Virus record (IMG/VR): IMGVR_UViG_3300045988_112172 | DNA: 64,000 bases | Reading direction: 5' to 3' (one strand) | Origin: a virus | In this document: positions 10,791-41,717 of the stretch, in pieces | Layout: every line of letters begins with the position of its first letter | How positions within the stretch are numbered: the first letter of the stretch is position 1 | Position numbers and translations under genes: made by a program | Notes under the pieces: model-generated | Told to the model about the DNA's origin: nothing | What the model saw: only the letters and a program-made list of their open reading frames with translations | The model's database searches: none

Positions 10791-10824
10791 AAGTGAGGCT
10801 TGTGAAAGTCTCACTTTTCTTATA
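10791..10824 (+). terminator. rho-independent terminator after the 752-aa gene
   Basis: 7-bp stem aagtgag / ctcactt with a 12-nt loop, followed by ttcttatat. Confidence 0.5.
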
Positions 10825-11356
10825 TATGCACGTATATCAATGACATATAAGAAAAGTTAGATTTTCATTGTTTATGGATTATTTTTGTTAAGTTTGCAAT
10901 ATTAGTTTCAGGAAGGGATTATGGGAATAAGGAAAAAGTAAGAACCGGACGTAACTAATAACAGTAGGAAATGAGAATCAGTACCATCAAACGTAACAAC
11001 AGCATTCATCTTATGTATAAAAACATTATGAATGATTTAGGTCAATTAAGAACTGTAGTTTCAAAATCCTATATTTATAATCTGATACAAAATCAAACCG
11101 GATTAAGTATCAGAACTATATCCCATGTCTTGAATCACACAAAAGAACAGGATACAGATTCTTTGTGAAAACCATACATTTTCATACATTTGTGTGTTCT
11201 TTAGTTTTTAGATTTAAGTTTTTCATGGTATTAGTTTAGATTAGTGTAGATCAGGGTTCGCAGTGATGCGGGCCCTGGTTTATTTTAATTCATATTGTTT
11301 TATTTTAAATCTAATTAATTCATGAATGTCGTACTTTTGTTGAAAAAGTATTCTAT

Positions 11357-11999: not shown

Positions 12000-12065
12000 T
12001 GGAATTAAAAGATTTTAAAGATGTAATTAGAATGATGACAAAAGAAGAGTTCGAATCAACAATCA

Positions 12066-12773
12066 ATGAAGATATTAAATTCGTTGAAAGATTCAAGTAT
12101 TTTTTTTAAACATGATGATGCTACGAGGATATTGGAACACATCGAGTCCGTGTTAAAAGCATCAGTGGACTACTACTATCCTAATCATTCTAAACCTGAA
12201 GCAGAACCAGGAGACATGGGAGAAGTTTCTGACGGATACCATACTTTCAATGAATTGTATCGGTACCGTATGTTGTATAATGCCGCCTTCTTTAATTTAT
12301 TAGCCAGAAACGGACAGGTTGAAGTTTGCAAATCAAGGAGACACAGCGACGGAGAAAGATGCTTCGGTTCTGATGACTGGTTTATTGTGATGGCAATGTT
12401 ACCCACTGGTCAGGTGTCTAATCACTATGAAAGCAAATACTGGGATTTGTTTGATGTTCCAGAAAGAGAAACCGCTTTCGAATATGATGGCCATACACCA
12501 AATGAAGCCGCAGACAGACTTGAACAGTATCTTTTTCGAAAGAAATCGGGTTTAACATTTGAAGAAGCTTTTAAATTTTTGAAAAATGGTAATAATATCA
12601 AAAGGCATGGGTGGAAAAATGAACATCTTGATGCTTTTAGAAAAAGTGGTGTTAGCTCAATTCATGTGGAAAAGTCATTGATCATAATTATAAATGAAGA
12701 AACACGGAGGCTGACATCGTGGAATCCAAGTATAGAAGATATATCGTCGAATGACTGGGAGGTTGTGAAATGA
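12066..12773 (+). CDS. hypothetical protein (235 aa); N-terminus may extend to 12002 through a frameshift in a T8 run
   Basis: Good ORF. An upstream 36-codon ORF (12002-12109) ends inside a tttttttt tract where the 12066 frame continues. Confidence 0.55.
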   Translation: MKILNSLKDSSIFFKHDDATRILEHIESVLKASVDYYYPNHSKPEAEPGDMGEVSDGYHTFNELYRYRMLYNAAFFNLLARNGQVEVCKSRRHSDGERCFGSDDWFIVMAMLPTGQVSNHYESKYWDLFDVPERETAFEYDGHTPNEAADRLEQYLFRKKSGLTFEEAFKFLKNGNNIKRHGWKNEHLDAFRKSGVSSIHVEKSLIIIINEETRRLTSWNPSIEDISSNDWEVVK

Positions 12774-13045
12774 GTTTGTTTGTTTGTTCACGATGTGGCT
12801 GTATAGATAATACAGCCACATCGTGTTACTGGGCTCTTACAAGACCTTGTAAGAATCGTATTTACGATAAGTCGCTAAAGGGATATGAAGGTAAGCCTCT
12901 TTGTTCTGAATGTGCTGCTATTGAATATGATAAGGAAGACCAACTGGTGGTGGTTCCTGGAACGTGGCACGGTAAGTTCAAGAAAGAATGGCCTACTGAA
13001 GAAGAAAAGAAGCATATTGGTAAAAACGGTATTTTAAATTATTGA
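12770..13045 (+). CDS. zinc-ribbon protein (91 aa)
   Basis: CxxC ... CxxC pattern (CSRCGC ... CSEC); start overlaps the upstream stop. Confidence 0.5.
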   Translation: MSLFVCSRCGCIDNTATSCYWALTRPCKNRIYDKSLKGYEGKPLCSECAAIEYDKEDQLVVVPGTWHGKFKKEWPTEEEKKHIGKNGILNY

Positions 13046-13048
13046 TTT

Positions 13049-25767: not shown

Positions 25768-26484
25768 TTATTTTACGTTTTTAGAAGTTACAGCCTCTTC
25801 TCCCCATTTCTTTACATATATAGATCTCATCATGTTCATTAAATTAGAGAAAGAAGAGATGGTTCCCATTTCTATACAAAATGCAAGATTAGATTGAAGC
25901 ATTTCAAGTTCTTTTAACTGCTCTTGAGTTGCTCTGTTATCTAAAACATATTTATGTTTATTGAATACAATCCAGTTTAACTTATCAGCCATTTCTATAT
26001 AATCAACATCTTCAAATTTTGATACAGACCTTGAAAGAGTATTGTATTTATCCCCTATCTCTATTCTATCCAAAATAAGTTTATCATTTAACCATCCAGT
26101 AACTTCTGCATACAGCATAGGATTTAATTCTATAGCGACTAATACCCATATGTAGGGATCACACATAACATTTCTGTTTGTTCCTCTTCCTGTAGTCTTA
26201 TAGGCATTATACCACTTCATTACTTTTATCAAAGAGTTGTTTTCCACTATATCCATAAACTCTTTCAAGGTTTCACTTTTTATGTATTTCTGTTTTTTAA
26301 GAATATAAAATATCCTTTCTGCACTCTCCTTGTTCGAAAGAATATTTTCTATTCTCTTATCATTCCACCCCATCTCCACTCTTTTTCTTGTATATGCCTC
26401 TTGTAATCCAGTTAATGACATAAAGGAAGTTTTAATGTCCTGTCTGATTACCACTCCATACAATAACCTGTCTTTAGAAATCAT
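25768..26484 (-). CDS. KilA-N/APSES-like DNA-binding domain protein (238 aa)
   Basis: Central segment TGRGTNRNVMCDPYIWVLVAIELNPMLYAEVTGWL resembles the KilA-N core. Confidence 0.45.
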   Translation of the reverse strand: MISKDRLLYGVVIRQDIKTSFMSLTGLQEAYTRKRVEMGWNDKRIENILSNKESAERIFYILKKQKYIKSETLKEFMDIVENNSLIKVMKWYNAYKTTGRGTNRNVMCDPYIWVLVAIELNPMLYAEVTGWLNDKLILDRIEIGDKYNTLSRSVSKFEDVDYIEMADKLNWIVFNKHKYVLDNRATQEQLKELEMLQSNLAFCIEMGTISSFSNLMNMMRSIYVKKWGEEAVTSKNVK

Positions 26485-26510
26485 AACTTTTAAATTATTT
26501 AATAAAATAA

Positions 26511-29245: not shown

Positions 29246-30265
29246 TCATCGTTTTATCTTTTTAGACGGATCCCAATCCGAAGAGAAAGGGCATTCGTTT
29301 TTGTTATGTAATCCAAAGTCACAATAATAACACAGTGCTGACGGGCAGGGTAGCTTGTTTTGCGAAACAGGCTGGCTTAGGGTGGCACGCCTCTTGCTAT
29401 ACCTGGTTCCTTCTGCTCCCTGGATGTATGCTTGAAATGCTTTTACACTATTATCTTCAAAATCATACATTTTAGACAAAGTGTCATTTAGCATCTCTAT
29501 AGATTTTGTTTTACGTTCCTCATCTACCTTAACCTTTTGGTACTGTCTGGTCCTGGTAAAGAAATAGATGTTCATATCTGGCAGAACTCCGCCATATCTT
29601 CTATAGATGTAAAATGAATATATAGGATGCTGTAAATTTGTTTCCAACTTCTTAGAGTCAAAAACCTTATTACCGGATTTCCAATCTATGACATAATGGT
29701 GAACTACGTTCTTGCTTTTTATAGCCAGATGAAGGTCTACCGATCCTACTATGTACACATGAGTATGAACGGTCCCATTTATATCAACAGGCTTAGGAAG
29801 ACGGTACGGCAGCACAAAATCTTCTTCGACTCCAACTATGGCGCCGTGTCTGATAAGTTTCTCGCAGGGATTAAGATCACTATCAGCTATCATAAACCTA
29901 TTGCCGTCTTTTTTGAACAGATCCACAATCCAAGCAAGAAGTTCCCCAGATTGCTTCATGGCCATCATCATATTTTCCGGTGATTGCCAAGGTATGTCCT
30001 CCTGGTAAGCATAGTAACTTATCGCTTCTCCAAGGTCTTTACCAGAAGGCTGTCTTCCGTTCTTAAAAAAGTATTCCAGTGTCTTATGGATAACCGTACC
30101 ATAAGACGTAGCTTCTTGTTTTTCCGTAGACCTTTTGCCCTCTACGTAAGTCTTATACCATTTCATTGGACAGGTAAGAAACGTATCTATCTGGGAATAA
30201 GATATGGCAAGACGTTTCACACCATTAAACTCCTTATATAGCAAATGCGTTTCCGGGACCATCAT
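29246..30265 (-). CDS. PD-(D/E)XK nuclease, Cas4/RecB-like, with a C-terminal Cys cluster (339 aa)
   Basis: VGSVDLH ... VIDWKSGN (motif II/III-like D ... D/ExK pattern) and a C-terminal CPSALCYYC ... C cluster, as seen in Cas4/AddB-type nucleases. Confidence 0.6.
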   Translation of the reverse strand: MMVPETHLLYKEFNGVKRLAISYSQIDTFLTCPMKWYKTYVEGKRSTEKQEATSYGTVIHKTLEYFFKNGRQPSGKDLGEAISYYAYQEDIPWQSPENMMMAMKQSGELLAWIVDLFKKDGNRFMIADSDLNPCEKLIRHGAIVGVEEDFVLPYRLPKPVDINGTVHTHVYIVGSVDLHLAIKSKNVVHHYVIDWKSGNKVFDSKKLETNLQHPIYSFYIYRRYGGVLPDMNIYFFTRTRQYQKVKVDEERKTKSIEMLNDTLSKMYDFEDNSVKAFQAYIQGAEGTRYSKRRATLSQPVSQNKLPCPSALCYYCDFGLHNKNECPFSSDWDPSKKIKR

Positions 30266-30609
30266 AAGTCATTGTCTTTAAATCCTTCCGGGTAATATAC
30301 GACATACTTCTTACCGTCTTCTGGTGTCATGGCAAACTGCATGTAGTTATTACGATTACGATGCTTGCCATCTAATCCTCGCTTCCAATACAGGATGCCG
30401 TCTATATCCACATAAGACCGTCCGCGTTCGGCTCTAACTACGTCCGTGTGTAGCAGATACCCGTCGGAAGACACAATCCATACTTTATCCCCTTTGTTTA
30501 AATAAGATATTCTTTTTCTTACAACAACCTTTTTCTTATTATCCAATACAAATTCCTCATCAGTCATACTCTTCATCCTCCTCTTCTTCTGTTTCAAAAT
30601 CAATTCCAT
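30262..30609 (-). CDS. hypothetical protein (115 aa)
   Basis: ORF with its stop overlapping the nuclease start. Confidence 0.55.
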   Translation of the reverse strand: MELILKQKKRRMKSMTDEEFVLDNKKKVVVRKRISYLNKGDKVWIVSSDGYLLHTDVVRAERGRSYVDIDGILYWKRGLDGKHRNRNNYMQFAMTPEDGKKYVVYYPEGFKDNDL

Positions 30610-30639
30610 ATCCCATATTCTATTAAATATATTTAAAGC

Positions 30640-31152
30640 TATTCGTATGTTTTAATACATCCCCTCGGAGACCTTTCGGTCTCCTTGGTAGATGTAAATC
30701 CCGTTAGGGATAAGTCAGGATTTCTCCTGTAAGTACCCATCGCCAATGTTATTTAAGGTTTTGAATAAGCAACACTGTTCCTGAATACCAGAACTGTTTA
30801 ATCACTTACCTTAGAGCTACAGACTTGGGCAAACATCCGTAGGTAACTATCTATTCTTAAATAACGTAGCCTTTGTTTCAAGGCTTAGGCTAATAACCCG
30901 ATCTCTTAAAGAGATGTATTAAACTTTTATAATAGAATTATATTGGTTTAATACTATTTGGGGTTATAACACTGATCATAATGATTGGTCAGTTCTTCTG
31001 GTTCTAAATCTTGTCCAAAATCCATGTTAAAAATATCGTAATTAGTAAAGCACTAAAAATCACTATTCCTGCTGGCATGAAATCTATAAATGCTGCTTTT
31101 GCTTCTTCAATTAGGCCCAAGTGTAACCTTGGGCCATTGTATTTATTTTTTG
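30640..31152 (+). ncRNA. candidate structured noncoding RNA (about 500 nt), antisense to the flanking gene block
   Basis: A 530-bp stretch with no ORF of 60 aa or more on either strand, inside an otherwise gap-free gene block. It is GC-richer than its surroundings. It has several perfect hairpins (GGAGACC-tttc-GGTCTCC, CAGGA-tttc-TCCTG, ATCTCTT-aa-AGAGAT, AGCCT ... AGGCT). It ends in a canonical plus-strand terminator (8-bp stem ggcccaag / cttgggcc at 31114-31135, followed by attgtatttattttttg). Confidence 0.4.
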
Positions 31153-32843
31153 TCATCTCCTTTTAATTTCTTTAAAGTATCTGCAATCGGAAGCTGATCA
31201 ATGACTCCCAATGCCGGAGCGACGGTCTTGACAACATTGTTAAGGAAATTACCGGTACTGTTCTGACCGCCGTCAAATACCGTGATATTTCCGAGATTAA
31301 TGTGCTCAAATGCTTTAACCTGTTCTCCAGCAATTTCTTTCCACTGATTAACCATCTTGTACTGGATGGCGATCTGAGGATTGGATTCTGCTGCTTCCAC
31401 CATAGCCTTAAATCCGTCGGCTTCTGCCATCAACGATTTTTTCTTACCTTCGGCTTCTGCCTCCAGCTTCATCTGAATAGCTTTTGCCTCCGCCTCAGCT
31501 TTTGCCAAATGTGCTGCTGCCTCTGCCTCAGCCCGGCGTTTGATCTTCTCTGCCTCAGCATCAGCTTGCAAGATAGCCTCTTCCTTCTGGGTTTCAGCCG
31601 GCACAATCTTTTCAGCCTTAAGCGCAGCCTGAACTTTCTTAGCCTTAGCTTCTTCCACTTCTTTATCAGCAAGCTCTTTTGCCGTTTTTACAGCCGCTTC
31701 CGATTTAACTTTTTCTTCTCCGGCCTTCTTTTCTGATTGAGCTTTGATAATCTGTAGTTCTGATACTGACACAGCAACCTCCTTCTGGGCATTGTTGTAT
31801 CCTATAGACGCATTTTTCTCAGCCTCAGCCTTCTTAATCTGAGCTTCAGAGTCTTGTATTGCTATAGCTGCTTCCTTGTCAGCTTCAGCCTTATTCTTTC
31901 CGACTTCTTCCATCCTTTCAGCCTCGGCTTTATTTACTTCAAGTTCTGCCTTAGATCTTACAATCGCCGATTCCTTGTCGGTTAAAGTTTTTGCGATAAC
32001 CGCAGCCCTGTCTCTATCTGCTTGAGCTACGCCGATCTGTTTCTCTTTATCGGTTAAAGCCAAGGCTATTTCTTTTTCTTTCTTCGTTTCAGCTACTATC
32101 GTTTCCTTTTCTTTTTCAGTACAAGCAATTTGAATCTCTTGTTCTTTTTTGGTATTAGCCACAGCCGTTTCTTTCTCCTTCTGCTGTACAGCAATCTTAA
32201 TAGCACCCAGCTTCTCCTGCTCTTCGATATTAGCTTGTGCTTCGTTCAGAGCCCTACTTTCAGCCTCCTTACCAAGGTTCATAATATAACCTGCTTCGTC
32301 TCTGATGTCACTGATGTTGATGTTCAGGAGGTAAAGACCTAACTTGTTAAGCTCGTTATCAATGTTCTTTCTTGCCTTATCCAAAAACTCATCCCTGTCA
32401 GAATTAAGTTTTTCGATTGTCATTTCAGCAATAATCAAACGCATCTGACCGTAAACGATGTCCGTAATAAGATTTTCAGTAGATTCGGTATCCATCCCCA
32501 AAAGTCTTTCTGCCGCATTTTGCATGATTTCGGGATTTGTACTGATAGCTACTGTAATGGTCGTAGGTACATCTACTCTAATATTCTGAGATGACAAAGC
32601 ACCGGTAAGCTTGCAATCTATTTGCATAGGCTCCATTGACAAAACATCATAGCTTTGAATAATAGGCAAGACGAATGCCGCTCCACCATGATATAATTTC
32701 GCCGACTTCTTTTCCCCACCTGTCTTACCGTAAACGACCAAGACCTGATTAGGCTTACATCTACGATACCTTGATAAGACTCCGATGATTGTCAAAATAA
32801 TCACTACAGCTAAGATAGCTGACACGTACATGATTGTTGTCAT
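31143..32843 (-). CDS. flotillin-like SPFH/band-7 domain protein (566 aa)
   Basis: N-terminal transmembrane helix, then an SPFH-like domain, then a long Ala/Glu/Lys-rich coiled-coil (EAEAEKIKRRAEAEAAAHLAKAEAEAKAIQ) characteristic of flotillin (FloT/YqiK type). Confidence 0.75.
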   Translation of the reverse strand: MTTIMYVSAILAVVIILTIIGVLSRYRRCKPNQVLVVYGKTGGEKKSAKLYHGGAAFVLPIIQSYDVLSMEPMQIDCKLTGALSSQNIRVDVPTTITVAISTNPEIMQNAAERLLGMDTESTENLITDIVYGQMRLIIAEMTIEKLNSDRDEFLDKARKNIDNELNKLGLYLLNINISDIRDEAGYIMNLGKEAESRALNEAQANIEEQEKLGAIKIAVQQKEKETAVANTKKEQEIQIACTEKEKETIVAETKKEKEIALALTDKEKQIGVAQADRDRAAVIAKTLTDKESAIVRSKAELEVNKAEAERMEEVGKNKAEADKEAAIAIQDSEAQIKKAEAEKNASIGYNNAQKEVAVSVSELQIIKAQSEKKAGEEKVKSEAAVKTAKELADKEVEEAKAKKVQAALKAEKIVPAETQKEEAILQADAEAEKIKRRAEAEAAAHLAKAEAEAKAIQMKLEAEAEGKKKSLMAEADGFKAMVEAAESNPQIAIQYKMVNQWKEIAGEQVKAFEHINLGNITVFDGGQNSTGNFLNNVVKTVAPALGVIDQLPIADTLKKLKGDDKK

Positions 32844-41377: not shown

Positions 41378-41388
41378 TGTATTAATAT

Positions 41389-41649
41389 TTAATTAGTTGA
41401 TTTCTTTCCTTTTTCTATTTCTGTTTGAAGCCTGGCTGAGCACCATTGTAGTACATCCATCATCATCATATTATTATTTGATAATACACCTTTTATAACC
41501 AAAGCCAGTTGACGAGGAGACATACGCTGACTCATATCAAACCTACATTCTTCTTCGTTTACTATCGTGGCCACAAAATATTTGCAATCTTCTAAATGTA
41601 TCAGGGCTTCAGTCATAGCCTCTTTAATCTTTTCTTCTTCCTCTTTCAT
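41389..41649 (-). CDS. hypothetical protein (86 aa)
   Basis: ORF. Confidence 0.45.
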   Translation of the reverse strand: MKEEEEKIKEAMTEALIHLEDCKYFVATIVNEEECRFDMSQRMSPRQLALVIKGVLSNNNMMMMDVLQWCSARLQTEIEKGKKSTN

Positions 41650-41717
41650 GTTTCTTATTTTTCGGACAAAGATATGTCTTTTGTTGCTTAATAAGAAACA
41701 GAATGATTTAATATAAA

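Follow-up and report, generated by a model that had tools for sequence, protein, structure and literature searches.

A mini-element with a HEARO guide-RNA gene interrupts a gut-phage operon and probably serves an IscB nuclease made elsewhere

The window, by which we mean the whole stretch of 64,000 nucleotides of viral DNA that was analysed (IMG/VR record IMGVR_UViG_3300045988_112172), contains a series of minus-strand genes that abut or overlap, except at one gap (30610-31142) in which neither strand holds an ORF of 60 aa or more. In the reading direction of these genes, an SPFH/flotillin gene lies upstream of the gap and a 115-aa ORF downstream of it, while a 50-aa ORF that is annotated in the nearest GenBank phage overlaps the flotillin stop (Table 1). 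The 50-aa protein, whose C-terminal half is hydrophobic (..FMPAGIVIFSALLITIFLTWILDKI), is conserved in relatives, and codons 7-16 of its ORF form a perfect 8-bp GC-rich hairpin that is invariant in 14 relatives. The perfect stem-loops mentioned in the preliminary description of this gap are indeed present, at 30667-30684 (7-bp stem), 30698-30711 and 30716-30729, and in two of them the loop reads tttc on the plus strand. Contrary to what had been stated, the gap is not GC-richer than its surroundings: its GC content amounts to 35.1%, whereas the window averages 37.6% and the adjoining 2-kb flanks 38-41%. Promoter-like sites occur in the region at chance level (4 against 4.0 expected).

The nearest phage in GenBank, csAssE-Sib (OR575929, 151 kb, human gut), is ~97.5% identical to the window on both sides of the gap and lacks 358 bp of it. 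The uninterrupted junction, which reads ..GATCAGTGTT / ATGGAATTG.. in the minus-strand sense, is present in csAssE-Sib and in 110 viral stretches. The pairwise comparison leaves the boundary of the inserted DNA ambiguous by 3 nt, and copies of the same DNA at ~15 or more other sites fix it at 30610-30967. The insertion sits in a 24-nt spacer between two co-transcribed phage genes, immediately 5' of an ATGG, without target-site duplication, and its boundary coincides with position 1 of the covariance model for the HEARO RNA family. What had been taken for one unit of ~500 nt is composite, consisting of the 358-bp insertion, 36 nt of native spacer and the 50-aa ORF. Neither does the flotillin operon end here, as had been suggested, because in csAssE-Sib the next gene follows the 50-aa gene after just 24 nt.

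Table 1. Positions of the genes and element parts at the locus, in window coordinates.
Feature	Position	Strand	Remarks
SPFH/flotillin, 566 aa	31143-32843	-	upstream gene
50-aa ORF	31004-31156	-	overlaps flotillin stop; annotated in csAssE-Sib; conserved in relatives
Presumed guide 5'-CAUUAUGAUCAGUGUU-3'	30968..30983	-	native phage sequence directly 5' of scaffold; length of 16 nt assumed
Whole 358-bp element: omega-RNA gene and left-end segment, no protein gene	30610..30967	-	absent from csAssE-Sib
HEARO/IscB omega-RNA scaffold	30729..30967	-	RF02033 model positions 1-211; compensatory changes across copies
Hairpin H1, CAGGA-GAAA-UCCUG	30716..30729	-	just 3' of the Rfam model; also in IscB-linked omega RNAs
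Hairpin H2, AUCCC-UAAC-GGGAU	30698..30711	-	IscB-linked copies have a hairpin of other sequence at the same position
Hairpin H3, ACAUC..GGAGACC-GAAA-GGUCUCC..GAUGU, ~40 nt	30657..30695	-	compensatory changes among variants
Terminal left-end segment (..UUUAAAUAUAUUUAAUAGAAUAUGGGAU)	30610..30656	-	last ~20 nt resemble the end of IscB-bearing elements
Target-adjacent motif ATGG (N; ATGR class)	30606..30609	-	abuts the element
115-aa ORF	30262-30609	-	no Pfam match; its start codon ATG is part of the ATGG abutting the element

An Infernal/Rfam scan of both strands identified the RNA encoded by the insertion. HEARO (RF02033) is the sole Rfam match at gathering thresholds in the window, running from 30967 to 30729 on the minus strand over model positions 1-211, with a score of 112.9 bits against a gathering threshold of 83 and an E-value of 1.7e-22 (cmscan). 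A permissive scan of the whole window, with E up to 0.1, yielded no second HEARO and no plus-strand family, and a tRNA/tmRNA scan of the window found none. HEARO is now known to be the omega RNA that belongs to IscB, a transposon-encoded protein from which Cas9 descends (Meers et al.). The earlier suggestion of a structured noncoding RNA was thus right in that a structured RNA gene is present, and wrong as to its strand, extent and nature, the gene being a minus-strand HEARO within a mobile 358-bp insertion. As the sole covariance-model match lies on the minus strand, and so points the same way as the genes around it, it is not a plus-strand unit antisense to them; nor is it a micro-ORF leader.

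Covariation analysis across relatives revealed double changes at 17 of the 73 predicted pairs in 16 copies (for example GCCUU/AAGGC versus GUGUU/AACAC, and UACGGA/UCUGUA versus AAGGAA/UUUCUU), a number of limited statistical weight because the 16 copies are closely related. The 5' end of the scaffold coincides with the transposon end and a variable sequence lies just outside it, the upstream 20 nt differing at every site. A co-oriented ORF for IscB (RRXRR and HNH domains) directly downstream, a further hallmark of the family, is absent from the window and present at L005, L014, L149 and other related loci. By its model score, its covariation and the coincidence of its 5' end with the transposon end, the RNA is on sequence grounds a member of the HEARO family, one without adjacent IscB. 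A long-range pairing of the 5' end (AUAACCCC) with GGGGAUGUA near the left end, proposed by RNAalifold, is not preferred, since the Rfam P1 helix covaries equally well.

In the omega-RNA sense the element reads 5'-ATAACCCC...AUAUGGGAT-3', its ends being ATAACC...GGGAT. When copies from different sites are compared, position 30967 is exactly where the conserved sequence begins, and everything upstream varies from site to site; a guide located just 5' of the scaffold corresponds to the published architecture of IscB omega RNAs (Meers et al.). In place of an IscB ORF, the part covered by the Rfam model is followed by ~118 nt of extra hairpins and transposon end. RF02033 is known to miss downstream structural elements (Meers et al.), a remark with which H1, being common to IscB-linked omega RNAs, is in agreement. 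H1, H2 and H3 are kept in every variant, and in the L002 subfamily (77% identical) H3 has the same shape in another sequence (ACAUUCC..GGGGAACC-cuc-GGGUUCC..GGAAUGU). H3 and the last 47 nt form the left end of the element. Conserved hairpins occur near both ends, at 30657-30695 and at ~30925-30955 (the first HEARO hairpin), and they are candidate binding sites for a transposase. H3 is a candidate subterminal left-end hairpin for a Y1 transposase or else a 3' structure of the RNA. No U-run follows H3, and therefore the element should not terminate the operon transcript. One copy of 320 bp (L075) is without H3 through a deletion between GGGAT repeats, and in another (L010) the left end is shortened by its final ~45 nt. 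The native spacer with the presumed guide lies within an imperfect hairpin (30971-30993, ACTGATCATAATGATTGGTCAGT) that is also found in the empty allele, a kind of structure that single-strand transposases often favour.

The way in which this DNA is inserted points to the ISC transposons. These transposons, most of which are non-autonomous, carry subterminal hairpins and make no duplication when they insert, which they do directly 5' of ATGA-like targets (N|ATGA); the GUCA with which the Rfam HEARO consensus begins is the 5' terminus reported for them (Kapitonov et al. 2016). In IscB elements the target-adjacent motif (TAM) abuts the left end and is common to TnpA and the nuclease; in Geobacillus it is TTCAT, which corresponds to ATGAA when read from the opposite strand. 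At the RNA-side end, the motif departs from the TAM in a few bases, and the elements are preferentially co-oriented with the upstream gene (Meers et al.). At the locus studied here, ATGGAA comes directly after the guide match in the empty site, and in the filled site ATAACC takes this place. We therefore regard the insertion as in all likelihood a non-autonomous mini-ISC element of the IS200/IS605 superfamily, which contains an omega-RNA gene and both ends without iscB or tnpA, and which would provide a guide for homing by an IscB acting in trans.

Such an element shares with HEARO/IscB OMEGA systems the full-length model match, a 5' end that is the transposon end, a variable guide upstream, the co-orientation with the upstream gene and the existence of close relatives directly upstream of RRXRR and HNH-containing IscB genes; it differs from them in that no IscB ORF follows and in that it lies in a phage operon. 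The lack of a duplication, the insertion 5' of an ATGA-like tetranucleotide, the putative subterminal hairpins, the precise presence/absence polymorphism and the lack of a transposase of its own are likewise properties of ISC transposons and PATEs. Unlike ISC elements, which measure 1.3-1.7 kb and encode IscB, and unlike PATEs, which consist of ends only, it has a length of 358 bp and keeps the guide-RNA gene alone, and as such it is intermediate between the ISC element (RNA and IscB) and the PATE (ends only).

Copies of the element were sought among the IMG/VR viral contigs with a pattern of 25 nt taken from the RNA's 3' part. This pattern was matched by 105 stretches, nearly all of them from 80-250-kb gut-phage contigs that are 90-97% identical to the window where they overlap with it; of the loci retrieved, none is identical to the window and the best reach 96-97%. 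Among 185,579 species genomes scanned for exact occurrences of the pattern, there were 0 matches. The copies of the mini-element are 357-365 bp long and comprise 64 distinct sequences with 23 flank pairs, representing ~15-18 independent sites, and several contigs carry two of them. The sequence on the 5' side of HEARO differs at every site and the opposite side begins with ATGR almost always, with ACGT as the one exception. Some contigs (L019, L046, L059 and L075 compared to the window, and L015 compared to L029) have only the upstream or only the downstream flank in common (e.g. downstream TATGGAATTGATTTTG...), because of which the element seems to be located at breakpoints of phage gene-cassette shuffling.

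As for the protein partners, a tblastn search with the IscB of a relative found no IscB in the 64-kb window, and no TnpA was detected in the window, nor in related loci totalling 1.27 Mb, nor in the phage contigs (scan for close relatives). The neighbouring ORFs were considered as IscB or IsrB candidates and discarded, the 339-aa ORF being a PD-(D/E)XK nuclease and the 115-aa ORF having no Pfam match. In relatives, HEARO is followed after ~50 nt by an IscB of 403-408 aa (Pfam RRXRR 8e-60, HNH 3e-9), and the canonical order of HEARO (124 bits), a 450-aa IscB and an IS200-type TnpA is found in Clostridioides phage pCD1602_4. A protein scan identified 224 IscB-coding stretches in viral contigs, and when 80 of these 224 IscB loci were listed, at least 11 contigs were found to contain both a mini-element and an IscB at a separate locus.

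The IscB-linked scaffold of L149 is 93% identical to window positions 30727-30896. The first ~70 nt of the scaffold differ between the mini-elements and the IscB-linked copies, and for this reason their compatibility with the phage IscB is presumptive. Both architectures are collinear up to ...CAGGAGAAAUCCUGACUUAU, where they diverge, and become similar again in the last ~20 nt and the following ATG. An origin of the mini-element by simple internal deletion of the phage IscB element is not supported, since its 106-nt tail is absent from the IscB loci.

At the site occupied in the window, the empty junction of the 110 viral stretches stands against ~25 filled alleles, and 17 empty alleles match the guide-side flank of the window exactly over at least 25 nt. 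In a neighbour-joining tree based on 2 x 600 nt of flanking DNA from 22 filled and 85 empty alleles, the filled alleles were scattered, requiring 16 parsimony changes compared to 20.3 (range 16-22) for shuffled labels. The flanks of the window are 99.25% identical to those of an empty allele and 97.8% identical to those of the nearest other filled allele, and in one pair of a filled and an empty allele the flanks differ at just one of the 1200 positions. The identity between elements shows no correlation with that between their flanks (r = 0.05), to the extent that 24 of the 85 pairs with flanks less than 90% identical have elements more than 97% identical. From the scattered filled alleles, the near-identical flanks of filled and empty alleles and the r of 0.05, it follows that gain and loss at this site outpace the divergence of the flanks. 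Either repeated precise excision or ordinary phage-phage recombination would account just as well for such a scatter of presence and absence, and repeated precise excision together with phage recombination could also contribute to the turnover.

An A/G polymorphism at 30973, 6 nt outside the element, bears on the way in which the element moves. The G (GATCGGTGT) occurs in 0 of 111 empty alleles and only in element-bearing ones, always together with a 364-bp variant of the element and in both deep clades of the flank tree. It may be a marker of co-conversion, or a guide mutation that does not match any empty site any more. The element travels with at least a few adjacent bases; both this and its rapid turnover at the site are expected under homing with co-conversion. 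In about half of the filled alleles, a guide-side polymorphism falls within the presumed seed and has no match among the empty alleles observed, which would weaken the homing of those alleles.

We propose that the element probably homes into empty alleles by providing the guide for an IscB that is encoded at another place. Read-through from the transcript of the upstream flotillin/50-aa gene would yield the RNA, with ~16 nt of flanking phage sequence at its 5' end as a guide, and an IscB from another locus, either in the same genome or in a co-infecting relative, would load it. This IscB would then cut alleles in which the guide match is contiguous to ATGR, which is the situation in the empty site, the predicted cleavage target in the empty allele being CATTATGATCAGTGTT + ATGGAA. 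The filled site would escape cutting because ATAACC replaces ATGGAA beside the guide match. Recombinational repair from the element-bearing genome would copy the element in (homing) or restore it after excision, and moves to new sites would need a Y1 TnpA supplied in trans.

A more far-reaching version of this proposal is possible, although we advance it only tentatively. IscB might be the common trans-acting homing nuclease for a fleet of guide-only mini-elements in a lineage of ~150-kb gut phages, with one iscB locus per genome and several dispersed 358-bp elements, each of which would guide to its own empty site, invade co-infecting relatives, drag markers along and perhaps exclude competitors. 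If true, this would amount to a natural gene drive between viruses, built on a nuclease-free 'guide cassette', and its functional counterpart would be the mini-CRISPR arrays of phages, which borrow an effector.

Among the other explanations, an inert relic or hitch-hiker has most in its favour, although we find it unlikely. Here, the element would be a PATE/MITE-like mini-transposon moved by a transposase in trans, its omega RNA would be loaded by no nuclease, and presence and absence would result from excision and recombination. Neither IscB nor TnpA is encoded in the window, protein-free PATEs derived from IS200/IS605 ends are known (Meers et al.; Kapitonov et al.), the scatter on the flank tree is compatible with repeated precise excision, and some copies are visibly decaying, such as L075 without the long hairpin and L010 with its truncated end. 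However, a transposase needs the ends only, and therefore mobility alone leaves the conservation of the RNA unexplained: the full 211-position model is kept at 113 bits, with compensatory changes in many helices. Moreover, at least 11 of the same genomes also contain an IscB whose scaffold is 93% identical, and the flank polymorphism travels with the element, both of which speak against a relic.

Far less probable is a structured or antisense noncoding RNA of ~500 nt on the plus strand, ending at a terminator at 31114-31135. The hairpin at this position does exist and is followed by a T-rich run on the plus strand, as had been described, but it belongs to the conserved 50-aa ORF, outside the insertion, and is unrelated to the element, since it also occurs in csAssE-Sib where the insertion is missing. 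The 1.8 kb that was scanned contains 3 terminator-like matches, a number that does not clearly exceed the 1.4 +/- 1.2 of shuffled sequences, and conservation across sites starts and stops at the borders of the element instead of at the hairpin. The plus strand folds well too (z = -4.6 compared to shuffles), but the minus strand folds better (z = -5.5) and its loops, which appear as tttc on the plus strand, are GAAA tetraloops of the GNRA type. Both strands outfold shuffles because the region is rich in palindromes, and therefore the folding energy is unable to assign the strand, which is assigned by the covariance model; even at E up to 0.1 no Rfam family matches the plus strand. A cis-regulatory leader, acting as attenuator or translational regulator of the downstream 115-aa gene, can practically be dismissed: the element does end exactly at the start codon of a downstream co-oriented gene, here and at at least 8 other sites, but these genes are mutually unrelated, the downstream gene functions without the element in 110 empty-site stretches, and the preference of ISC transposons for ATGR targets explains the position.

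Turning back to homing guided in trans, the presumed flank-derived guide, the adjacent motif that is also the transposase target, the predicted protection of the filled site and the existence of guide-matching empty alleles are all features in common with TnpB/IscB homing (Meers et al.), from which the proposed process would differ in that the nuclease would act in trans and in that its likely arena would be co-infecting phage genomes and not sister chromosomes. As a selfish insertion between conserved genes, patchy in close relatives and accompanied by flank markers, the element also resembles the free-standing homing endonucleases of phages with their intronless homing and marker exclusion. 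In contrast to these endonucleases, target recognition would be RNA-guided and the mobile unit is without nuclease gene.

Omega RNAs that stand alone have been noted before in work on OMEGA systems. In the part of the literature covered by our search, no paper was found on guide-only elements spreading in phage genomes. As the RNA family and the transposon superfamily have both been described, the bare finding is a gain in annotation, by which an unannotated gap in a phage operon can be labelled as an OMEGA guide-RNA element. Less routine is the multiplication of a guide-RNA-only derivative to many sites in one lineage of large human-gut phages, beside separate iscB loci, and its gain and loss at the site in the window, faster than the 1.2-kb flanks diverge. 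If homing in trans is true, it would offer a natural system in which to study RNA-guided homing between viral genomes and what it contributes to phage mosaicism and competition, as well as compact pairs of IscB and omega RNA that use a TAM of the ATGR type and come with their natural targets.

Some further observations concern the IscB-bearing relatives. A cassette of the window (12015-13048) encodes on the plus strand a 235-aa protein (12066-12773) with WDGH (1e-36) and Tad2-like/Thoeris anti-defence 2 (7e-12) matches; at L182 and L187 the homologous cassette is replaced by omega RNA and IscB, and homology resumes at the ATG on the far side. At L146 and L149, omega RNA and IscB occupy a site homologous to 41378-41717 (especially ~41413-41568), 340 bp without an ORF of 100 aa or more. 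This case is a replacement and not a clean insertion, given that the upstream homology is ~76% and ends ~150 nt before the downstream ATGAATCG. In bacterial genomes, the IscB protein scan gave a single match (86%) at L298, a phage-like 20-kb contig (NZ_JBHMEP010000019.1) of Vibrio olivae CECT 8064, which also holds a HEARO RNA 79% identical to that of the window and a stretch 71% like window positions 25999-26487. This contig is either a related phage in or with the Vibrio olivae strain or a contamination, and although no other clue to a host was obtained, we do not trust it as a host assignment.

Finally, the only other matches in the permissive Rfam scan were weak ones at 10805-10865, where a palindrome matches a microRNA model on both strands with scores of 31 and 29 bits, below the threshold of 84. 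This palindrome, which follows the 752-aa ORF, is probably no more than a long inverted repeat, perhaps a bidirectional terminator.
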